Source of the DNA: a virus
Taxonomy: Duplodnaviria; Caudoviricetes
Virus record (IMG/VR): IMGVR_UViG_3300025016_000030
Coordinates: 1 to 24,377 of that record
Direction: 5' to 3' (one strand)
DNA length: 24,377 nucleotides
The notes under the pieces are model-generated. The model saw only the letters and a list, made by a program, of their open reading frames with translations. It was not told where the DNA came from and ran no database searches. Below, piece after piece: positions 3,628-21,884 of the stretch. Each line of letters starts with the position of its first letter. Position 1 is the stretch's first letter. Position numbers and translations under genes: made by a program.

Positions 3628-4300
3628 AACAAATGAAACCGAGCAAACAATTGAACTGATTCAGCAAGAAAACTTTTCTTCTATGATCAAAACACACAAG
3701 CAACCAGTTTCGGTTCATACTGTGTTTTTTGATGAGGATATTGGATCTCCTTCTACGTACAGAGAATTAATTCATCTTTTATATTTGGCAGAAGAGTTCG
3801 ATCAATTTATTTTTATTATTAATTCTTCTGGGGGAGATTTAGATGGTGCATTATCTATCATTGAAGCATGTAAAGCAACTAATGCTAATGTCAGAGCAAT
3901 TATCACTGGAAAATGTCATTCTGCTGCATCAATCATTGCTTTGAATTGTAACAATGTAATGGTTACCGAATCTGCTCATTCGCTTATCCATACAGCAAGT
4001 TACGGTGCCTACGGTTCCACAGGCCAAGTAAAATCAAATGTTGACTTCTCTACTAAGCAGATTAAGCAGATTTTAGAAAACACATATGGTGGATTCTTAA
4101 CACCAACAGAAATTCTTGATGTTCATAAGGGTGTTGAATTTTGGTTTGATGCAAAAGAAATAAAGAAACGGTTAGAAAATAAAAGTAAATTTTTACAACT
4201 TACAGTAAATTCGAAGAAAAGAAAACGGCCGGTGGCTGAAGTCAATTCCGATAAACCTGTAGATTTAAATCTTCCATCTTCACAGAAAACTTCTACATAA
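3614..4300 (+). CDS. ClpP-like serine protease
   Basis: INSSGG (cf. INSPGG), CHSAASII catalytic Ser, LIH catalytic His, WFDAKE. Confidence 0.85.
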   Translation: MKKNRTNETEQTIELIQQENFSSMIKTHKQPVSVHTVFFDEDIGSPSTYRELIHLLYLAEEFDQFIFIINSSGGDLDGALSIIEACKATNANVRAIITGKCHSAASIIALNCNNVMVTESAHSLIHTASYGAYGSTGQVKSNVDFSTKQIKQILENTYGGFLTPTEILDVHKGVEFWFDAKEIKKRLENKSKFLQLTVNSKKRKRPVAEVNSDKPVDLNLPSSQKTST

Positions 4301-7732: not shown

Positions 7733-8029
7733 ATGAATTTTAAGAAATCAGATAAACAATACACTCATATCTTTTTTTCGGATAAAGGTTCCCGAGGTGT
7801 TTATAACCTAAGTACTGGCAAGATTAAAGAGTTTGAAATGTCAGATAAAAATTTTAAAAATCCGGCGAAACTACTTGGTATCACTGGAATGAATTGCCAA
7901 CTTTATGTGACTATTGATGGTTCTGATATGACTGTTAAAGACATGTACTATCTTGATGGTGATAGATTTTTTACAGAAGAAGAAATTACTAAATATTGTA
8001 CCGGTATGAAATGGAAGTACGAAGCATGA
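7733..8029 (+). CDS. Hypothetical protein
   Basis: 98-aa ORF; ATGA overlap with the glycosyltransferase gene. Confidence 0.65.
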   Translation: MNFKKSDKQYTHIFFSDKGSRGVYNLSTGKIKEFEMSDKNFKNPAKLLGITGMNCQLYVTIDGSDMTVKDMYYLDGDRFFTEEEITKYCTGMKWKYEA

Positions 8030-8967
8030 AACAAACCAGAGCAAAGATTTTTATCCTGTCTAAGGGTCGCTGGGAATCCCGGATGACTTCAAAGACTTTA
8101 GAAGAAATTGGTGCTGATTATCAAATTGTGATTGAAGAACAAGAATATGATCAGTATGCAGCAGTAATTGATCCTAAGAAAATTTTGGTGCTTCCATTCT
8201 CCAACATGGGTCTTGGTGGTATTCCTGCTCGTAATTGGATTTGGGAATATTCAACCGCCCGTGGTGATGATGCTCACTTTGTGCTAGATGACAATATTCG
8301 TTACTTCTACCGGAGTTTGCATAATACAAAACTCCGTGTAAATTCTACTGTACCATTACGTGCAGTAGAAGATCTGGCAGAACGATATACAAATGTAAAA
8401 ATGGCTGGCTTGAATTATCACTTCTTCCAACCAACATTTGTTAAGAAAGAACCTCTGTACATTAATACTCGAGTCTATTCTTGTATTTGGTTGACAAATA
8501 AAACTACCAAGCGCTGGCGTGTTCTTGAATGGGATGGCAATCCTGCGCCATACAATGAGGATACAGATTTAAGTCTGCAATTTTTAGAGGACGGTGATTG
8601 TACATTCCTTCTAAATCACTTCAGTTGTGGTAAAGCAGATTCTGGTGCCGTCAAGGGTGGCAATAATGATACGGTCTATAAGTATGCTTCGGCAGAATAT
8701 GATAACCGTTTTAAGTTTGCCGCATCACTCGCTAAAGCTCATCCAGAGTTTGTTGAGGTAACTCAGAAACATCGCAGATACCATCACCAAGTGAATTATT
8801 CTAAATTCCAAAATTTCAGTGTGCCGCGCCTTAAACCGGGTATTGTTATTCCAACGGAACCGAATAATTACGGTCTTAAATTGGTGAAACTAGATGACCC
8901 AAAAAATATTTGTGGAACACATACTGTACTAAATACAGACAATTACTTGGAGTTGGAAAATGAATAA
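8026..8967 (+). CDS. TAGT/GREB1-like GT-A glycosyltransferase
   Basis: IFILSKGR, IVIEEQEYDQY, ARNWIWE, VLDDNI, RVYSC, YNEDTDLSL, GGN, HHQVNY. Start ATG 8026 overlaps the upstream stop. Confidence 0.8.
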   Translation: MKQTRAKIFILSKGRWESRMTSKTLEEIGADYQIVIEEQEYDQYAAVIDPKKILVLPFSNMGLGGIPARNWIWEYSTARGDDAHFVLDDNIRYFYRSLHNTKLRVNSTVPLRAVEDLAERYTNVKMAGLNYHFFQPTFVKKEPLYINTRVYSCIWLTNKTTKRWRVLEWDGNPAPYNEDTDLSLQFLEDGDCTFLLNHFSCGKADSGAVKGGNNDTVYKYASAEYDNRFKFAASLAKAHPEFVEVTQKHRRYHHQVNYSKFQNFSVPRLKPGIVIPTEPNNYGLKLVKLDDPKNICGTHTVLNTDNYLELENE

Positions 8968-9238
8968 AAATCTATTTGAGATGCTCGGTGTTGATACAGA
9001 TGTTCCTATCTGGTCTGGAATGCCATTTCATAAACAAGATCAAGCAGAAGCAGAATACGTACTGATCATAAATGTAGATTCTAAAGAAAATTTAGATAAA
9101 CTTGCAGATCTTATTGACCAAAAACAAATCAAAGTAAAAGCCAAAACAAATGTAAAATCTATATGGTATCCGAAATTGGTCAGAGGAGAACGGGGCTCAA
9201 ATAGTTGGTATGTCTGGAAAGAAATTGACGAGGAATAA
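8960..9238 (+). CDS. Small glycosyltransferase-associated protein 1
   Basis: WSGMP..Q, LADLIDQ, KSIWYPK; overlaps the GT stop. Confidence 0.7.
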   Translation: MNKNLFEMLGVDTDVPIWSGMPFHKQDQAEAEYVLIINVDSKENLDKLADLIDQKQIKVKAKTNVKSIWYPKLVRGERGSNSWYVWKEIDEE

Positions 9239-9242
9239 GATA

Positions 9243-9482
9243 ATGACAGATGAAGAACTAGAAGAATTTTCTACACCAGATGTAGAATCTGATATTCAAA
9301 AATTTAAATTAGAAGATAGATATGGCACTGGATTTCAAGTAGTTGTTAGATTTAGAAATCAAAAAGATTATTTTGAGTTTGCAGATCTCATTAAGCAACC
9401 AAAGTTGAAAGTTTATTCAAAAGTCAAAATGCGAGAGACAGATTGGCCCCTTAAAGAACCAGAAAATTCTCTCTTTGATTAG
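9243..9482 (+). CDS. Small glycosyltransferase-associated protein 2 (apparent paralog of protein 1)
   Basis: VVVRF..QKDY.EFADLIKQ...DWP aligns by eye with the previous ORF; SD GAGGA before ATG 9243. Confidence 0.65.
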   Translation: MTDEELEEFSTPDVESDIQKFKLEDRYGTGFQVVVRFRNQKDYFEFADLIKQPKLKVYSKVKMRETDWPLKEPENSLFD

Positions 9483-9484
9483 AT

Positions 9485-9512
9485 TTTACTTTTCTTTCTA
9501 ATGATTTATAAT
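9485..9512 (+). promoter_or_regulatory. T4 early-type promoter
   Basis: TTTACT-N16-TATAAT. Confidence 0.65.
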
Positions 9513-9529
9513 TAATTTTTGGGGTAAAA

Positions 9530-10477
9530 ATGAATAAACGCACATTGATTACTGGTGCTGCAGGATTTCTTGGTTCACATTTGGTTGAATCATTATTAAA
9601 TGACGGTCATTCGGTTATTGCTATGGATGATTTATCTACCGGTAGATTATCTAATTTAGAAAAATTTAAATTTAATAAAAATTTTGAGTTTGTAAGACAT
9701 GATGTAATTCAGCCTTATCATTATGATGTAGATCAATTGTGGAATCTTGCATGTCCTGCTTCTCCCCCAGCATATCAAAAAAATAGATATAAAACATTAA
9801 TGACTTCTATCAAGGGTGTAGAAAATGCATTAAACTGTGCTCGGAAAAACGGAAAGACGTGTAAAGTTTTTCAGGCTTCAACGTCCGAAGTATATGGTGA
9901 TCCGATCGTACATCCCCAAGTAGAATCTTACTGGGGTAATGTTAATACTATCGGACCAAGATCGTGTTATGATGAAGGCAAACGTGTAGCAGAAACTATG
10001 CTTACAGACTTTTCTCACGAATTTAATATACCTGTTAAAATTGTTCGTATCTTTAATACGTACGGACCGAACATGGATCCAAATGATGGTAGAGTAGTTT
10101 CTAATTTTATTATGCAAGCTCTCCTACACGAACCATTTACTGTGTACGGTACTGGTAAACAAACAAGATCATTTTGTTATGTATCTGATCTTATTTCTGG
10201 TTTTAGAAAACTTATGGATGAAACACCAGATTCATTCATTGAACCTATCAACATTGGAAATCCTAATGAATTTACTCTGATGGAATTAATTGATAAGGTT
10301 AAAGAACAAACTGGTTCTAAATCCGCTCTGATGTTTAAAGATCTTCCGGGTGATGATCCAAAACAACGATGCCCAGATATTACCAAAGCAAAAGAAATTC
10401 TTGGGTGGGAACCAAAAATTATGTTGGATGAAGGACTGGAAAAGACGATTACATACTTTAAATCGTTAACTAAATAG
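9530..10477 (+). CDS. uxs: UDP-glucuronate decarboxylase (UDP-xylose synthase), extended SDR
   Basis: TGAAGFLG, LACPASP, ASTSEVYGDP, YWGNVNTIGPRSCYDEGKR, RIFNTYGP, DGRVVSNF, QTRSFCYVSD, DDPKQRCPDI. Confidence 0.92.
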   Translation: MNKRTLITGAAGFLGSHLVESLLNDGHSVIAMDDLSTGRLSNLEKFKFNKNFEFVRHDVIQPYHYDVDQLWNLACPASPPAYQKNRYKTLMTSIKGVENALNCARKNGKTCKVFQASTSEVYGDPIVHPQVESYWGNVNTIGPRSCYDEGKRVAETMLTDFSHEFNIPVKIVRIFNTYGPNMDPNDGRVVSNFIMQALLHEPFTVYGTGKQTRSFCYVSDLISGFRKLMDETPDSFIEPINIGNPNEFTLMELIDKVKEQTGSKSALMFKDLPGDDPKQRCPDITKAKEILGWEPKIMLDEGLEKTITYFKSLTK

Positions 10478-10513
10478 ATGTGTAACTAAACTTTAAAAGG
10501 AAAAAAAATAATT

Positions 10514-11344
10514 ATGGGTAAATTGAATATTGGTATTGTTGGTCTCGGTTTTGTAGGGTCTGCGGTTGCACATGGATTCCAGAATAATAATTTATTTCTC
10601 GTAGATCCAAATCTGGGTACTGATACTTCATTGTTAAAGAAACAGAAGATGGATGCCGTGTTTATTTGCGTGCCGACACCTATGGGTGAAAATGGTGCTG
10701 TTGATATTTCCATTGTTATTAAAGTTCTTTCTGAACTCAAAGATGTAGATACTTTGTTAGTTTTGAAATCTACGGTACCACCAAATCTTGTTGATGAATT
10801 TTCTAAATTTTATGACAAGTTTGTATACAATCCAGAATTTCTTACTGAACGTAATGCACTGTGGGATTTTGAAAATCCAATCTCTAATGTTTATGGTGGT
10901 CAAATTGAACACACTAAGCAGCTCGAACAGATTTATAAAAATCACTCCATCTGTAAAGAGGCAAATACTTTCCACATGACAGCTCAGGAAGCATCATTTG
11001 TCAAATATGGTATGAATTCTTTTCTATCTGCTAAGGTGTTATTCTGGAATCAATTCTATGATCTGACTCAAATCGCCGGTGCAGATTTTAATATAATTAA
11101 ACGAGCAATCGCGAATGATGTTAGAATTGGTCCAAGTCATATGAATGTACCTGGTGAAGATGGTCACAGAGGATTTAGTGGCTCGTGTTTTCCCAAAGAT
11201 GTCCCTGCGTTTGTGAATTACTCATTCCAAATGGGTGAACCATTTACAGTACTTAAAGAAGTTTGGAACAAGAATTGTGATTATCGCTCGGCAAATCTTC
11301 TACCACGTGAACTTCAACAACACATTAAGTTTAACAAAATATGA
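10514..11344 (+). CDS. ugd: UDP-glucose 6-dehydrogenase family (short form)
   Basis: GLGFVG, FICVPTP, KSTVPP, NPEFL, KY..N, DVRIG, GFSGSCFPKD. Confidence 0.88.
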   Translation: MGKLNIGIVGLGFVGSAVAHGFQNNNLFLVDPNLGTDTSLLKKQKMDAVFICVPTPMGENGAVDISIVIKVLSELKDVDTLLVLKSTVPPNLVDEFSKFYDKFVYNPEFLTERNALWDFENPISNVYGGQIEHTKQLEQIYKNHSICKEANTFHMTAQEASFVKYGMNSFLSAKVLFWNQFYDLTQIAGADFNIIKRAIANDVRIGPSHMNVPGEDGHRGFSGSCFPKDVPAFVNYSFQMGEPFTVLKEVWNKNCDYRSANLLPRELQQHIKFNKI

Positions 11345-12918: not shown

Positions 12919-13536
12919 ATGAGTTTTGAAGATCTAGTTTGGGAACAAAAATTCCGGCCGAAGACCATTGATGATACGGTACTTCCCAGTAATGTTAAAA
13001 AGATGTTGAAGGAACAATTAGAATCTGGTAAGCTTCCAAATTATTTGTTCTGTGGACCTCCAGGTACAGGTAAAACTACATGTGCCTATGCTATTTCAAG
13101 TTTTCTAGATGCAGATGTTCTTTTTATTAATGCTAGTTTAGAATCTGGAATCGATACACTGAGAACTAAAATTACTCAGTTCGTTTCTACGGTTTCTTTT
13201 ACAGATTCCAAGAAAATCGTTGTACTTGATGAGGCAGATTATTTAAATTGCTTTTCTGCTTTTCAAGAAATAATGTTAATTGATCAAACCGGAGAAACTA
13301 TTTCTAAACCGATTGGAGAGCTTTGCGGCAAAGAAATAGATTTACTTTCGGTTGAAAATGGAAAAAATACAATTGATTCTGGAATTGTATTTCAGTCAGG
13401 GGAAGCAGAAATTTTTAAAGTAGAATTTGAAGATGGAAGTTCTATGTATTGTACAAAAGATCATAAGTTTTTTGATGAAAAAATGAATGAAGTTTGTATT
13501 GACGAGGGTGTTTATTTAAAAGCCGTACATTTCTAA
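12919..13536 (+). CDS. 44: Clamp loader large subunit gp44, N-extein (110 aa) fused to split intein IntN (13249-13533)
   Basis: WEQKFRP, GPPGTGKTT, INAS, DEADYLN, then CFSAFQEI (intein block A) and CTKDHKF (block B). Confidence 0.93.
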   Translation: MSFEDLVWEQKFRPKTIDDTVLPSNVKKMLKEQLESGKLPNYLFCGPPGTGKTTCAYAISSFLDADVLFINASLESGIDTLRTKITQFVSTVSFTDSKKIVVLDEADYLNCFSAFQEIMLIDQTGETISKPIGELCGKEIDLLSVENGKNTIDSGIVFQSGEAEIFKVEFEDGSSMYCTKDHKFFDEKMNEVCIDEGVYLKAVHF

Positions 13537-13577
13537 TTTTATTAAATATATTTAGATAAACTCATTCATCTAAATAT

Positions 13578-14651
13578 ATGCAAAGTCAAACTATTCCGTT
13601 TACGTATTCAATAAAACAAAAATCTACAGGGAAATGGTATTATGGTGTAAAATATGCAGACAATCAGACGCCAGAATGTCTTGGTATCACATATTTTTCA
13701 TCATCCAAAACCGTCAAAGATTTGATAAAGATTTATGGCATAGATGATTTTGAATTTAAAGTAAGAAAAATTTTTTCCGATAAATTATTAGCCATTCAGC
13801 ATGAATCTAAGTTTCTAAAGAGAGTTTGTAGGTATAAGAAATTAAGATTAAAATTTTTGAATAAAACATATGGGGCTCCAGCTTTTTGGCCTATTATGTA
13901 TGGTGATCTAAATCCATCTAAAAGACCAGAGATCAAACATAGACTATCTATTGGTGCCAAAAATAGAACCAAAGAAACATTGTTCAAAATAGGAAAAAAT
14001 GGTTCTGCTACTAAATTAAAAAAAAATATTTTGTTTTTATTGAGTAAAATTAAACCTCATAGAAAATCTTTATCAATTCAAACAATAATAGATAATAAAA
14101 TAACAAATTTAGCTATGGTTTCGAGACACATAGATTTTCTTAAAAACCATAAAAAATGCTATAACAATATAATAAATTTATACAAAAAAATTTTTGAATT
14201 AATAATATCGATTCCAAACAAACCGTATCCAAAAAATAGAAAACCAAAAGTAATGTCTCCTGAAGCTTCCAAACTAAAAGGTGAAAAAATAAGAGAAACA
14301 AAGTTAGGAAAAGTCTATGCGAAAAATATTTTTACAAATGAAACTAAAATGGTTAAAATAGAAGAAATTGGGGATATTTGGAAAAAGGAAAAAATGCACA
14401 CAGAAGAAGCCTTAATTAAAATTTCAAATACAGCAAAAAATTGTTCGGATGAAACAAGAGAAAAAATATCAGAATCCGTTAAAAGATCTAGATCTAATTC
14501 AAAATATTATACCTCCCCTGACAAATCTTACTATAAATCGTTCAAAGATAATGAAATTGTTCCAGATGGGTGGTTACCGGGAATTAAAGTTGAATCTCGA
14601 AACAATAAAATAGGTGAGAATAATAGATGGTCAAAGAAAGACAAAAAATGA
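13578..14651 (+). mobile_element. Free-standing GIY-YIG (Seg-like) homing endonuclease with NUMOD3-like repeats, between the split-intein halves
   Basis: FTYSI..K.TGKWYYG...YFSSS...G...F...E catalytic domain; MYGDLNPSKRPE, HTEEALIKIS, SDETREKIS; very Lys- and AT-rich. Confidence 0.85.
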
Positions 14652-15364
14652 AAAAAATAGTTAAAATTACTAGTTGTGGTATACAACCTGTGTATGATGT
14701 TACCACTAACAGAACACAGAAATTTGTTCTTTCAAACGGAATTATTGCACATAATTGTAATTCTGTGCAACCCGCGCTTCGTGGATTTTTAGATGAATTT
14801 AGTTCAAATGCTATTTTTATTTTTACATGTAATTTCCCAGAACGTATTATTTCTCCGCTACAGTCACGTCTGACTCGGATTGACTTTAAATTCTCCAAGG
14901 AAGAAAAACAATCTGCTATGTCGCAGATGTTTAAATCTACATGCAAAATTCTTGACACCGAAACTGTTAAGTATGATAAAAAGACTGTGGCCGCGCTGGT
15001 ACAGAAAAACTTTCCAGACTTTCGTAAAACAATTGTAGAACTTCAACGATATTCTTCATCGGGTGAAATTGATTCTGGTATTTTAGCTACGATTGATGAT
15101 ACTGGTATTAATGATCTTGCAACTCATCTGAAGGAAAAATCCTTTACTAAGGTGCGTCAATGGATTGCAAATAACCAGATGGATGCATCTCAGTTCTATC
15201 GGTTATTTTATGATAAGATTTCAACAATGCTTATCCCACAATCTGTACCGCAGTTAATTCTTCTGATTGGTGAAGCACAATTCAAAGCTGCATTCTCAAT
15301 TGATCTTGAGATAAATGCCGCGGCATTTTGTGTGCAAGTGATGCGTGATTGTCAGTTTCAATGA
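14648..15364 (+). CDS. 44: Split intein IntC (36 aa) fused to gp44 C-extein
   Basis: MKKIVKITSCGIQPVYDVT...FVLSNGIIAHN|CNSVQPALRGF...FIFTCN...PLQSR...FPDFR; ATG 14648 overlaps the HEG stop. Confidence 0.93.
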   Translation: MKKIVKITSCGIQPVYDVTTNRTQKFVLSNGIIAHNCNSVQPALRGFLDEFSSNAIFIFTCNFPERIISPLQSRLTRIDFKFSKEEKQSAMSQMFKSTCKILDTETVKYDKKTVAALVQKNFPDFRKTIVELQRYSSSGEIDSGILATIDDTGINDLATHLKEKSFTKVRQWIANNQMDASQFYRLFYDKISTMLIPQSVPQLILLIGEAQFKAAFSIDLEINAAAFCVQVMRDCQFQ

Positions 15365-16146
15365 ATTATGAATTACACCAAGGTGATTGTCTTGAAGTAA
15401 TGAAGATGATTCCTGGTTCTTCTGTTGATATGATTCTGTGCGATCTTCCATATGGGACAACTGCATGTGCCTGGGATACAGTAATTCCGTTCGACCAATT
15501 ATGGGAACAATATTCCAGAATAGCAAAAGATACAGCACCAATAGTATTAATGGCGGCACAACCTTTTACTACAGCTTTAATTTCCTCTAATATGTCTCTG
15601 TATAGATATTGTTGGATTTGGTTAAAAGAAAGAGGCACTGGATTTCCTATTAGTAAATTACAACCTCTTCGAATGACGGAAGATGTAGTAGTTTTTTATA
15701 AAAAACAACCAAAGTATAAGTATCAAGGAGAAAAACTCAGCAAACCATATAGTCATGTTTTGCCGATAACAAAGAGCGATTCGTCAAGAGTATCTGGTAC
15801 TGGGTATGATGAAGACGGTAATAGGATTAGAGCATATTATACTCATAGTACAAAAAATAATCTAATTAGTATTCCAAGAGATAATAATAAAAATAACAAT
15901 CACCCTACACAAAAGCCAGTAAGATTGATGGAATTTTTAATAGAAACTTATACGGATGAATTAGATACAATTTTAGATAATTGTATGGGTTCTGGAACAA
16001 CTGGTGTGGCATGTGCAAATCTCAATAGAAATTTTATAGGTATTGAAATGAATCAAAAATACTTTGATATAGCGAAAACTCGGATTACAGACGCACGCGA
16101 AACTGTTGAAAACATTGCAGAATTTGAATCTAATCTTTTTGAATAA
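15361..16146 (+). CDS. N6-adenine/N4-cytosine DNA methyltransferase (beta class)
   Basis: GDCLE, DLPYG (motif IV), HPTQKP, LDNCMGSGTTG (motif I). Confidence 0.92.
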   Translation: MNYELHQGDCLEVMKMIPGSSVDMILCDLPYGTTACAWDTVIPFDQLWEQYSRIAKDTAPIVLMAAQPFTTALISSNMSLYRYCWIWLKERGTGFPISKLQPLRMTEDVVVFYKKQPKYKYQGEKLSKPYSHVLPITKSDSSRVSGTGYDEDGNRIRAYYTHSTKNNLISIPRDNNKNNNHPTQKPVRLMEFLIETYTDELDTILDNCMGSGTTGVACANLNRNFIGIEMNQKYFDIAKTRITDARETVENIAEFESNLFE

Positions 16147-18238: not shown

Positions 18239-18267
18239 GTTTACAAAGCATTCTATTGTGATAGAAT
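18239..18267 (+). promoter_or_regulatory. T4 early-type promoter for gp43A
   Basis: GTTTACA-N16-TAGAAT. Confidence 0.7.
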
Positions 18268-18290
18268 TAATTATTAATACGTGAAAATAT

Positions 18291-19751
18291 ATGGCCTTAA
18301 TTTATACATCAGTCGAACAAAGATTTAATAAGATTTACTTCCGTGGATATAAAGACGGAAAACGTGTGCAAACTGCAGATGCGCAGCATAAACCAACTCT
18401 ATATGTTCCCGGTCAATCAACCGAATACAAATCTCTGTTTGGTGAAAGTTTAACCGAGATTCAATTTAGTGACATTCGAGAAGCCCGAGATTATGTAAAA
18501 TCTTATTCTGATGTTATGAAAATTCACGGCAATGACCGATATGAATATGACTTTATACATCGGAATTTCAGAGGTGAACTTAATGTAGAATTATCAGCTC
18601 TTTCACTTCTATATTTGGATATTGAAACGACTACGGGTCATGGGGCAATTGACACTAGAAACGCTCCAGAGACTGTTCTTCTTATCTCATGTTATTCCAA
18701 TAAGCAGGCAAAAATGGTGACGTTTGGCATCGAACCAAGCAATGCCAAGGGTACTGAGTACATTCAATGTACAGATGAAAAGGATTTACTGCTTAAATGG
18801 ATTAATTATTGCATTGAAGTTGATTTTGACATTATGTCTGGTTGGAATGTCGTTCAGTTTGATATGGCATATTTGGGTTCTCGAATCATCAAACTGCTTG
18901 GTCAACGAGCACTTGATCGTCTGAGTCCGTTTGGTCACGTAGATGCTAAATTGGAAACAATTATGGACCGTGAATATCTTAGATATGAAATTTCTGGTCG
19001 TACGGTACTTGACATGTTGGATCTTTACAAGAAGTTCAGATTCATTAATCGTCCAAGTTATAAACTTGGCTATATTGGCCAGGTTGAAATTGGTGAAAGT
19101 AAAACCGAGAACAAATACAAGTCGTTCAAAGAACATTATGAACTTGGTTGGAATGACACGGCCGAAGGCCCTGATGGTTTTGTTTCTTATAATATTCAGG
19201 ACGTAAATCTTCTTGTTAAACTTGAGGACAAACTTGGCCTAATTTATTTGGCTGTAACTCTGGCATATTTGACTAAAGTAAATTACTCGGATGTTTATTC
19301 ACCTGTGAAAACTTGGGAATCATATATTCTTTCTACTCTATATGAGGAAAATGTATTCTGTCCAATAAAAAAGCATCATTCGTCTGATCACCAAATTGTT
19401 GGAGGTTTTGTGAAAGATGTTGTTCCAGGCTTGTATAAGTGGACCGGTGTATTGGATGCTACATCACTATATCCAAGTTTTATTATGTCACTGAATATGT
19501 CGCCAGAAACTATTGTTGACATGGTGGATGGAATTTCTATTGATACACTTCTCAACACAGATATTAGTAATGAATCTGATTATGCTCTTGCTGCTAATGG
19601 TTCTCGTTATCGAAGAGATATTCGGGGTGTGATGCCACGGCTTACTGAATCTATGTTCGGTAAACGCAAGGCAGCAAAGGATGAAATGCTACGTTTGAAA
19701 CGTGAATATGAAAAAGTTCATACAGAAATGGTTAAAAGAGGTTTAGCGTAA
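18291..19751 (+). CDS. 43: DNA polymerase gp43, part A (N-terminal and exonuclease domains, motif A, first fingers helix)
   Basis: DIET (ExoI), GWNVVQFD (ExoII), YNIQDV (ExoIII), GGFV, DATSLYPS (motif A), KRKAAK; stops in the fingers domain. Confidence 0.95.
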   Translation: MALIYTSVEQRFNKIYFRGYKDGKRVQTADAQHKPTLYVPGQSTEYKSLFGESLTEIQFSDIREARDYVKSYSDVMKIHGNDRYEYDFIHRNFRGELNVELSALSLLYLDIETTTGHGAIDTRNAPETVLLISCYSNKQAKMVTFGIEPSNAKGTEYIQCTDEKDLLLKWINYCIEVDFDIMSGWNVVQFDMAYLGSRIIKLLGQRALDRLSPFGHVDAKLETIMDREYLRYEISGRTVLDMLDLYKKFRFINRPSYKLGYIGQVEIGESKTENKYKSFKEHYELGWNDTAEGPDGFVSYNIQDVNLLVKLEDKLGLIYLAVTLAYLTKVNYSDVYSPVKTWESYILSTLYEENVFCPIKKHHSSDHQIVGGFVKDVVPGLYKWTGVLDATSLYPSFIMSLNMSPETIVDMVDGISIDTLLNTDISNESDYALAANGSRYRRDIRGVMPRLTESMFGKRKAAKDEMLRLKREYEKVHTEMVKRGLA

Positions 19752-19763
19752 TAGTCATATTAT

Positions 19764-19792
19764 TTTACATTCAACATCTTTTGGTTTAAAAT
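19764..19792 (+). promoter_or_regulatory. T4 early-type promoter for the second gp43 ORF
   Basis: TTTACA-N17-TAAAAT, followed by SD GAGGT at ~19803. Confidence 0.65.
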
Positions 19793-19815
19793 AGTCCTAA
19801 TAGAGGTAATAAATT

Positions 19816-19933
19816 ATGAATAGTAATTCTAGCGAGTTTTCATCATTGACTGATGAGCAGTTAATGCAGTTAGCTCATAAACTAAAATCCGATTCAGCTA
19901 GATTCGGGGTTCTTCAGTTAGCAATTAAAGTGT
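19816..19933 (+). CDS. 43: gp43 part B, exon 1 (not in ORF track)
   Basis: MNSNSSEFSSLTDEQLMQLAHKLKSDSARFGVLQLAIKV: first half of motif B (Q.A.K); SD GAGGT. Confidence 0.88.
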
Positions 19934-20179
19934 AAACAACTGCACCTTTATGTGGCGACACATAAAGCAAACCATGTGAATTCGGTGAAACTCCAGAACG
20001 GACAATACCGAGCCAAGCCCAGCAATGGGAAGGTGTAACGACTATTCCGAAAGGAAGTACAGACAAGTGTCTGGAAGTGCATGGCATCTCTATGAGATGA
20101 TGAGATAGTCTGATCTATATGGGAACATATAGCTGGGTCTTCCCGGAGTTAGAATAACAAACTAATTCGAACACATATG
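19934..20179 (+). ncRNA. Group I self-splicing intron, 246 nt, ORF-less, IA2-like
   Basis: 5' exon ends in U pairing with G in P1 (GUGU|A...UGCAC); P2 ctttatgtg-GCGA-cacataaag; P aattcggtgaaa; Q aataccgagc; P7 GACTA(20040)/TAGTC(20106); P3 ccatg/catgg; P7.1, P7.2, P8 and P9 hairpins; terminal G. Removal restores KVSLNSLFG in frame. Confidence 0.93.
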
Positions 20180-20724
20180 CGTTAAACAGCCTCTTTGGTG
20201 CTATGGCCAATAAATATTTTCTATTCTTTGATAATCGAATTGCAGAAGGTATTACGACCACCGGCCAATATGCAATTCAAGCAGTATCACGAACAGCAAA
20301 TGCTTACATGTCTAAAATCTGTAAGAAGGAAATGGATTATGTTGTCTATAATGATACCGATAGTTGCGTCGGGTCTAGTCTTGTCTATGTAAACGACAAA
20401 CAGATCCCAATCGAAAAATTATATGATATGTTTTCAGATTATACTAAATATGATCCAGAAAATCAAAATTTTGTTAAACCTACTGTTGGCATTACTACGA
20501 AATCATTCAATACAGAAAAAGAACAAATAGAAACAAAACAAATAAAATATGTTATGAAACATAAGGTTAAAAAAGAAATGTTTCGTATTACTTCGGAAGA
20601 TGGAAATTCCGTTGTAGTTACAGGTGATCACTCAGTTATCGTTCGTAGAAATAATGCTTATACTTCTATTAAACCAAAATATATAGTTGAAGATGACATT
20701 ATAATTACGGCGCAATTAAAATAA
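20180..20724 (+). CDS. 43: gp43 part B, exon 2, ending in split intein IntN (20362-20721, 120 aa)
   Basis: LNSLFGAMANKYF...AEGITTTGQ...YNDTD|SCVGSSLV (block A)...VTGDHS (block B). Confidence 0.92.
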
Positions 20725-20728
20725 AAAC

Positions 20729-20758
20729 TTTACAAAATGGTGAGAATCTGATTATAAG
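20729..20758 (+). promoter_or_regulatory. Possible promoter between the split-intein halves
   Basis: TTTACA-N18-TATAAG; weaker match than the others. Confidence 0.4.
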
Positions 20759-20801
20759 AAAGATAAACTTTCTACAATTTTAAAATGTACGGACAAAATA
20801 A

Positions 20802-21731
20802 ATGAATTATATAACAGGAAAATGCAAAGTTGAATCTCTTGGTATTCAAGAATTAGATGTATATGATATTGAAGTAGAAGACAATCATAATTTCTTTGCA
20901 AATAATATTCTGATCCACAATTCTCTCTGTGTCTGTTTTGATAATCTAGTTAAACTTTCACCTAAGAAAATGGACGACAATGCCTCAGCCGATTATATTC
21001 TTAAATTTATTAAGGATTTCCTTGGTAAGGAATTAAACAAATCTACTGAGGCTATATCGGCTCGGCTAAATTTTTATGAAAACAAACTTTACTTCAAACC
21101 AGAAGCTATTTCTTCAACTACTGTGGTTCTCGCCAAAAAGAGAAACTGTCAGAAAGTCATTGATAATGAAGGTGTTAGATATGCAGAACCAGAATACAAA
21201 ATTACTGGTATTGAAACTAACAGATCATCAACACCAGACTTAGTTCGTGAATGGCTTACTAAGGCAATTCAGATTATTTTAGATACAACCGACCGAGATA
21301 CTCTGTTAGCATATGTAGATGAATGTCACAAAAACTTCCATTCATATTCTGTAGAGGAAATTTCATTCCCCCGTGGTGTGAATAATATGAAAGAATATTC
21401 CGATGTAAATGCAATTTATGCAAAGGGTTGTCCAATTGCAGTCCGAGCTGCTCTTTTATATAACAACCAGATCACAAAGTTGAATCTGACAAATAAGTAT
21501 GAATTAATTAAAGAGGGTGACAAAATCAAATATGTAGCACTCATCGAACCCAATACACTTCGGGAAAATATTATCGGATTCACGGACAAACTACCAGAAG
21601 AGTTTAATCTTCATCGGTACGTTGATTATGAGACTCAATTTTCCAAGGCTTTTTTAGATCCATTAGTAAAAATAATGGATGCTCTGAACTGGAAGTTAGA
21701 GGAAGAGAACAGCTTAGATTCATTCTTTTGA
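20802..21731 (+). CDS. 43: Split intein IntC (40 aa) fused to gp43 C-terminal palm/thumb
   Basis: VYDIEVEDNHNFFANNILIHN|SLCV, AKKR, GIETNRSSTP, GDKIK, C-terminal clamp-binding SLDSFF. Confidence 0.94.
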   Translation: MNYITGKCKVESLGIQELDVYDIEVEDNHNFFANNILIHNSLCVCFDNLVKLSPKKMDDNASADYILKFIKDFLGKELNKSTEAISARLNFYENKLYFKPEAISSTTVVLAKKRNCQKVIDNEGVRYAEPEYKITGIETNRSSTPDLVREWLTKAIQIILDTTDRDTLLAYVDECHKNFHSYSVEEISFPRGVNNMKEYSDVNAIYAKGCPIAVRAALLYNNQITKLNLTNKYELIKEGDKIKYVALIEPNTLRENIIGFTDKLPEEFNLHRYVDYETQFSKAFLDPLVKIMDALNWKLEEENSLDSFF

Positions 21732-21759
21732 TTAAGGAATATGATATGAATATAGTTTT

Positions 21760-21870
21760 ATGACTCAAACACAAAAAATTCTCTTCATGGAAGTATTGGA
21801 ACTTTTGCATGAAAGAAGAATGCTTACAAAAGATCTTTATGTGCTAAGACTTGGCACCCCAGCAATTTAA
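21760..21870 (+). CDS. Possible 36-aa ORF
   Basis: MTQTQKILFMEVLELLHERRMLTKDLYVLRLGTPAI* fills the gap before uvsX; no well-placed SD. Confidence 0.25.
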   Translation: MTQTQKILFMEVLELLHERRMLTKDLYVLRLGTPAI

Positions 21871-21884
21871 CTAAGGAAACTAAA

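Follow-up and report, generated by a model that had tools for sequence, protein, structure and literature searches.

A T4-like phage DNA polymerase gene in three reading frames, with a finger-tip split, a group I intron and a predicted split intein

The DNA polymerase gene (gp43) of an uncultured T4-like phage is divided over three open reading frames (ORFs) in a stretch of 24,377 nt (IMG/VR record IMGVR_UViG_3300025016_000030, positions 1–24,377; this whole stretch is called the window). In the reading that we consider best, with a probability of roughly 0.85, a group I intron is spliced out, a split intein is predicted to join the two parts of subunit 43B, and 43B likely pairs non-covalently with subunit 43A, whereas the breaks themselves are likely selfish insertions gained successively. 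A layout of this kind is already on record, and the window holds a genuine and independent variant of it. The features of the locus are as follows, where IntN and IntC are the N- and C-terminal intein halves and RBS is a ribosome-binding site.

18240..18267, plus strand: promoter-like site TTTACA-16-TAGAAT before 43A (consensus match only)
18291..19751, plus strand: gp43A, 486 aa, with the N-terminal domain, exonuclease, motif A, finger helix O and an 11-aa tail ending E-x3-R-G
19716..19893, plus strand: 178-nt finger-tip cassette, composed of the 43A tail, stop, promoter-like site, RBS and 26-aa 43B head
19764..19792, plus strand: promoter-like site TTTACA-17-TAAAAT before 43B1 (consensus match)
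19802–19806, plus strand: AGAGG (RBS) before 43B1
19816..19933, plus strand: 43B1 exon 1, with the head helix (L-T-D-E-Q-L), then helix P as far as the lysine of motif B
19934..20179, plus strand: ORF-less group I intron, 246 nt, IA2-like, inserted in phase 1 at the codon that corresponds to T4 559
20180..20361, plus strand: 43B1 exon 2 extein, the remainder of motif B to D-T-D of motif C
20362..20724, plus strand: IntN, 120 aa, with Ser1, motif NX His67 and motif N3 T-G-D-H
20729..20758, plus strand: promoter-like site TTTACA-18-TATAAG between IntN and IntC, within their 77-nt gap (consensus match)
20802..20921, plus strand: IntC, 40 aa, with the motif C2 Asp and terminal His-Asn
20922..21731, plus strand: C-extein from Ser+1, 269 aa, with the remaining palm, thumb and C-terminal tail

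The three ORFs occupy 18291–19751 (486 aa), 19816–19935 (39 aa) and 20802–21731 (309 aa). The TAA that closes the 39-aa ORF overlaps the 5′ splice site of the intron, and removal of the intron gives a frame of 220 aa, consisting of a 100-aa extein that ends DTD and the 120-aa IntN. The third ORF comprises the 40-aa IntC and 269 aa of polymerase, and mature 43B is 369 aa. These sizes and coordinates are the same as those in a preliminary description of the window. When segments 19816–19933, 20180–20361 and 20922–21731 are joined in silico, as suggested there, and combined with 43A, the exteins are colinear with T4 gp43 and with the intact relatives, and ExoI–III and motifs A, B and C appear in order in the alignment. 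ATG 20203, the start of the 173-aa ORF of gene callers (P0124), was rejected as the start of 43B1 because its product lacks motif B. The triple layout is common to six other contigs (L009, L010, L011, L069, L090, and L091; 98.4–100% nucleotide identity), some of which may share one community, and single contigs cross all three breaks in DNA runs X17 and X19. The preliminary description had allowed for assembly errors at the breaks; the recurrence of the breaks in these six contigs refutes such an error. Synonymous and replacement codon changes against the relative L013 number 187:46, 22:2 and 115:23 in the three segments and, judging from these ratios, the gp43 segments are under purifying selection.

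The intron region matches Rfam RF00028 at 19924–20132 with 91.2 bits (E 1.7e-22; gathering cut-off 50). P1 pairs with the exon end, a U-G pair is found at the 5′ splice site, and the terminal base of the intron is G. The insert between P7 and P3 in the Rfam alignment folds into two hairpins (P7.1 and P7.2), which are the mark of subgroup IA2. In RNA run X20, one contig joins 19933 to 20180, skipping exactly 246 bases, and an unspliced contig is also present. The joint was found in this one of four RNA runs and in none of the four DNA runs, and the exon–exon junction has no exact match in IMG/VR. Runs X21–X23 cover the region in patches without the joint, which is not evidence against splicing. 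The intron is precisely removed from RNA in vivo, and the support for this is direct but thin. Self-splicing would be the chemistry expected from its family membership. In a blastn search of the intron region against named phages, no record covers 80% or more of it, and three of the 122 records are Aeromonas phages.

Another interruption is observed just after motif B at other loci. In L153, L160, L203, L217, L237, L212 and L243, a TAG with an insert of 5–8 bases follows N-S-x-Y-G-A-L in 43B, close to where the Aeromonas phages have their intron. In the four loci tested (L153, L160, L203, and L212), Rfam detected no intron at the insert. L243 and L212 have a matching or synonymous codon after the stop. 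The insert looks like a tiny ribosomal stop-hop.

The intein lies between the residues equal to RB69 D623 and S624 in the PDB alignment. All class 1 Ser1/Ser+1 split-intein motifs, as defined in PMC10189870 and PMC13014065, are present: Ser1, NX His after Lys, N3 T-x-x-H, C2 Asp, His-Asn and Ser+1. IntN gives 35.9 bits with Pfam Intein_splicing (cut-off 35.8), and IntC gives 25.6 bits, below the cut-off. The halves of 120 and 40 aa at motif C have the sizes of a typical PolB1-type split, in which IntN has 100–120 aa and IntC has 35–40 aa (PMC12707363). The intein matches the structure of Aes123 PolB1 (9HTH) with E 7e-20, where His67 of the window corresponds to His68 of Aes123. The net charges of IntN and IntC are +2 and −5, respectively. 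Trans-splicing of the two halves is predicted from the complete motifs and the identity to the Aes123 PolB1 halves. The 77-nt gap between IntN and IntC contains no ORF and no endonuclease gene, and the polymerase intein is thus short of a full fractured gene.

Two alleles without the intein (L089 and L012) should be noted, since they define its boundary. The intron is present in both, and the flanking DNA is 98–99% identical to the window; in L089, the finger-tip split is also visible alongside the intron, giving an intermediate allele. The intein-less allele is present in two of the four DNA runs. It reads D-T-D-S-L-C with a single Ser, and this Ser is therefore residue 1 of the intein; Cys2 as the first residue was rejected on the same ground. 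Judging from these alleles, the intein is polymorphic within the population. L089 and L012 differ from the window by four synonymous codons at the intein site, which would fit co-conversion during homing, though intein loss is also possible. The numbers of changes in the intron (0) and intein (3) against the changed codons in 43A (57) and the C-extein (35) were not used as evidence of a recent sweep, because structural constraint and uneven coverage would fit them as well.

A second split intein is observed in the window at 12919–15364, where the clamp loader gene gp44 is fractured into gp44-N with a Cys1 IntN (95 aa), a 357-aa homing endonuclease-like ORF (phrog_314), and IntC with gp44-C. 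The gp44 gene is intact in relatives L070, L071, L073 and L074 (86–90%). The charges of the gp44 intein (IntN −11, IntC +4) are opposite in polarity to those of the polymerase intein, a difference that may prevent cross-reaction between the two split inteins.

The finger-tip break has the bicistronic 43A/43B layout of gp43, with a stop and a new start. The link between helices O and P is a 9-residue turn (27 nt) in relatives L013, L014, L015 and L092, and the 178-nt cassette replaces it in the window. The added tail (11 residues) and head (26 residues) can both be aligned to the long T4 tip and to the ends of 43A and 43B in Aes123. Taking the three breaks together, assembly of the enzyme may proceed in three steps. 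The group I intron would exit between 19933 and 20180, restoring motif B. IntN (+2) and IntC (−5) would then capture each other and splice via Ser1/Ser+1 esters, restoring D-T-D-S of motif C. Finally, the 43A tail and 43B head would likely lengthen helices O and P to clasp the cut tip, as the alignment with the long finger tip of T4 and the co-purification of 43A and 43B in phage 25 suggest. The three-step model offered in the preliminary description is supported by the junction in RNA, the complete intein motifs, and a split type known to be active (PMC2988022).

The head was searched for in IMG/VR with the pattern L[ST]DxEL located 29 residues before the motif B Asn. At least 120 loci were found, with an estimate of about 260; since split examples had served to build the pattern, the counts indicate specificity, not frequency. 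The 120 loci comprise 64 split, 1 fused and 55 without 43A in the available DNA (40 of the 120 have short flanks). 43A ends with E-x3-R in 60 of the 64 split loci and with E-x3-R-G in 52, and 39 of the 49 measurable distinct tails have the spacing found in the window. Neither motif is found in any of the 85 intact loci of a control set (106 loci fetched by similarity). Among the first 80 loci, 48 have an ORF other than 43A nearest upstream of the head; 38 of these were scanned (10, mostly near-duplicates, were left out), and homing or HNH endonuclease families were matched in 11 of them. A search with the 43A tail region gave four close proteins among seven candidates, which is too narrow to judge its spread. 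At many of the loci with the head, either 43A lies at a distance of more than 2.6 kb or unrelated cargo occupies the gap. In L133, L143, L169 and L187, the head-bearing 43B is fused to IntN without the intron.

We propose tentatively, with somewhat less than even confidence, that the finger-tip split is itself a mobile cassette of tail, stop, (endonuclease), start and head. Such a cassette may move between T4-like lineages, lose its endonuclease and cycle with the intact state, while its helices clasp the fingers without splicing. The long tip of T4 would then be a re-fused copy, and the window would represent a recent case in which elements of all three kinds, lacking endonucleases, were inserted into one gene. 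If so, the cassette offers endonucleases a third harmless place in an essential gene, besides introns and inteins. The conserved tail/head pair also bears on how split phage polymerases assemble, which is called an open question in PMC2988022. This cassette and the conservation of its tail and head most deserve to be followed further.

The relatives of the window provide the evidence on origin. Those with 86–91% identity have an intact 828-aa gene, and L013, L014, L015, L092 (81–91% in the C-extein), L017, L019 and L095 are unbroken at the finger tip, motif B and motif C. A complete 192-kb relative (G001) has one PolB frame. The exteins of the window are 90–97% identical to those of the intact kin but 28–48% identical to those of Aes123. 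In the C-extein tree, the window is nested among seven intact relatives with support of 100/98. Three groupings are rejected by approximately unbiased (AU) tests on 27 rows under LG+G4: the window with Aes123 (p 1e-73), the window with the closest proteins that bear the head (p 2e-6), and a clade of the intact kin that excludes the window (p 4e-8). On a C-extein tree of 99 rows, the tail/head state changes at least 12 times versus a mean of 28 for shuffled labels; by this count, the state is clustered on the tree, but not of a single origin. These observations suggest that the triple layout of the window likely arose separately and recently.

In the simplest account, the finger tip and motifs B and C serve selfish elements as insertion hot spots, and the lineage of the window has acquired three such elements in gp43 and a fourth in gp44 after its separation from kin with 86–91% identity. 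The intact short-tip gene would be the local ancestral state, the split and the intron would have come first, and the intein would be still polymorphic, or being lost. No endonuclease gene is left in any of the three inserts. The intact kin of about 90% identity, the intein-less allele and the window form a series with 0, 2 and 3 breaks, ready for measuring the cost per break.

Other changes are found at this locus among the relatives. An insertion of about 1 kb is present at 4090–5110 of L092, an 87%-identical relative, in the 43A region near residues 262–280. Between gp43 and uvsX, an ORF of 105–160 aa with a P-loop-like stretch is observed in L012 (1005–1400), L090, L091 and L013; the corresponding interval of the window (21732–21884) lacks this ORF, which is seen in near-identical alleles and in L013.

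Several points weigh against the reading of a spliced, trans-spliced and successively interrupted gene. The spliced junction is one contig with a depth of 3.3 and 30 nt on its short side, and the X20 sample differs from the samples of the DNA runs, making an intron-less DNA allele there possible. Exon 1 near the intron has only 65% DNA identity to the relatives, where donor DNA or adaptation to P1 is possible. The tree represents the C-extein alone, under LG+G4, and its next branches outside the intact group (P0010, P0018, P0013, P0015, and P0020) bear the head motif, as labeled from N-termini without contig context. A deeper ancestor may thus have been split, and the state may cycle. The locus has no endonuclease able to move the inserts, and the genome is known from the 24,377-base contig only, so that a second polymerase is possible.

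Four other explanations were considered. That the finger-tip split (the origin of the split only) is old and inherited, the intact relatives having re-fused or regained an intact tip by recombination, is unlikely but deserves the most weight among them: the nearest outgroups in the tree bear the head motif, and the change counts give no direction. It needs several restorations, in L013, L014, L092, L015, L019, L017 and L095, versus one gain; one split gain appears simpler than several re-fusions. In its length and its T-x-D turn, the intact tip is also still like that of distant intact polymerases, for example L020. Transfer of the entire three-break block at once from an Aeromonas-type donor (Aes508/516) is very improbable and largely refuted, in spite of the same order of pieces, intein site, 120-aa IntN and finger-tip position. 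The intron is eight codons off and matches the Aeromonas introns in short core pieces only, the exteins resemble the intact kin rather than Aes123, the AU test rejects the required grouping, and the intermediate allele with split and intron exists in L089.

The preliminary description suggested that replication could be made conditional on two splicing steps. The anatomical dependence stands, since both steps are required to rebuild motifs B and C. That the stack is kept as a control switch, making replication conditional on RNA and protein splicing, for example under stress, is possible but improbable and is without support. Every piece has its own promoter-like site and a split intein is also present in gp44 of this phage, as such a switch might have it. 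However, the alleles of 98–99% identity lack the intein, the relatives of 86–91% identity lack all three breaks and the gp44 intein, and the inserts are found at conserved active-site codons, as is typical of selfish elements (PMC2988022). Given the near-identical alleles without the intein and the close relatives without breaks, nothing points to a control switch. A decaying copy or an assembly artefact is hardly credible. The 24-kb fragment leaves room for it, but the repeated contigs described above refute assembly error, and decay is at odds with the intact motifs, purifying selection, spliced RNA and canonical gene place. Successive insertion of selfish elements at shared hot spots is the preferred reading, rather than regulation.

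The TTTACA element that had been noted upstream of each piece is real. The pattern TTTAC[AT]-N16-18-TA[ATG]AA[TG], which was picked after inspection of the sites, has nine matches on the plus strand of the window, including those at 18240, 19764 and 20729, against a mean of 0.3 in 200 shuffles. A generic sigma-70 scan gave 65 matches versus 53.5 ± 7.3 expected, mildly above chance and not discriminating.

The surroundings of the gene are those of a T4-like replication block, in the order gp45, gp44, gp62, regA, Hsp20, dsbA, gp43, uvsX and gp41, and gp43 is at its canonical place with regA/dsbA on one side and uvsX/gp41 on the other. Among named phages, cyanophage polymerases are closest to 43A, with only 37–42% identity, indicating a lineage without a close cultured member. 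The public runs that contain the stretch are mostly labeled as aquifer or groundwater metagenomes. Genes for a glycosyltransferase, a nucleotide-sugar epimerase, a UDP-glucose dehydrogenase and a DNA methylase are located at 7996–11344 and 15349–16146 of the window, and these sugar genes and methylase suggest DNA modification. In another viral contig (L084, 1800–2048), a permuted transfer-messenger RNA (tmRNA) is found near an intein-containing polymerase.

The preliminary description knew of no gene with all three mechanisms stacked, and this claim does not hold. The GenBank annotation of Aes508 lists gp43A, an 'N-terminal fragment including group I intron and N-intein' and a 'C-terminal fragment including C-intein', and the same pieces are annotated in Aes512, Aes516, Aes144 and Aes517, whose introns are detected by Rfam. 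The stack is therefore already known from records. The triple stack is also present, unannotated, in AS-gz, whereas Aes123 has the split and the intein without the intron. We found no publication describing the triple stack or the conserved tail/head pair in the available texts searched; supplements were outside the search, and papers of the Karam and Mootz groups may describe both. The available part of PMC3014915 contains nothing on the split.

The Aeromonas salmonicida phages Aes516 (JN377905), Aes508 (JN377894), Aes512, Aes517, Aes144 and AS-gz likewise have 43A, 43B1 (with intron and N-intein) and 43B2 (with C-intein). Their gene 43 and the window are alike in the finger-tip split, the intein between Asp and Ser of motif C and an IntN of about 120 aa, and Aes516 also has no endonuclease gene at either gap. 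In contrast, Aes508, Aes512 and Aes517 keep a GIY-YIG gene at the split, and these three and Aes144 keep a VSR-like gene inside the intein; the window has neither. The Aeromonas intron is at T4 codon 567 and has a different sequence, eight codons away from that of the window at 559, and the exteins, at 28–48% identity, are not of common descent. All three break types of the Aes508/Aes516 type are thus found in the window in the same order, but at a different intron site and in a separately descended gene.

The intein of the window shares its insertion site, Ser1/Ser+1, NX His, N3 His and terminal His-Asn with Aes123 PolB1 (PDB 9HTH; PMC11923092) and CP21 PolB1 (PMC12707363). As in these, IntN is basic and IntC is acidic, though the charge contrast is weaker (+2/−5) than in Aes123 PolB1 (+8/−11). 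The identity to Aes123 PolB1 is 37% for IntN and 66% for IntC (residues 9–40). For Aes123 PolB1, about 30% splicing is reported in vitro (PMC11923092). The window intein has Cys at position 2 and in IntC, and so is not cysteine-free. It adds to the natural split inteins with Ser1, which are in demand for protein engineering.

In the bicistronic gp43 of phages 44RR, 25, 31, 65 and 133, as in the window, a finger-tip break gives two separately translated subunits (work of Petrov et al. in 2006 and 2010, according to PMC2988022 and PMC3061061). Finger-tip splits are known in these five T4-like phages and are tolerated in Pfu (PMC3061061), and 43A and 43B of phage 25 co-purify and are active (PMC2988022). 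The window is unlike them in having a 178-nt replacement in a short-tip lineage, intact kin of about 90% identity and two further breaks in 43B. Petrov et al. are said to have described, in 2010, an intron in 43B of phage 25 as well. The split NrdA of Aeh1 resembles the window polymerase in that the break comes with an extra C-terminal tail and N-terminal head, neither of which intact homologues have; those tails are essential and expected to vary in sequence (PMC3045599). The window differs in the protein concerned and in its tail and head motifs, which recur across distant polymerases.

In fractured genes, a free-standing endonuclease lies between the halves of a split intein (PMC2677866). 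The window polymerase intein is likewise split at the usual endonuclease site, and the full form is seen in L080–L082 and in gp44 of the window; contrarily, the polymerase intein has a 77-nt gap with a promoter-like site, an endonuclease-less stage. L080 (3863–8393; also L081 and L082) represents a third lineage, at about 30% identity, with the split, a group I intron (118.9 bits), a split intein and a 356-aa ORF between the intein halves. Its intron is at T4 codon 563, between the sites of the window and the Aeromonas phages. The three break types are thus combined in three lineages, each with its intron at a different codon of motif B, and the Aeromonas gene 43 is not a one-off.

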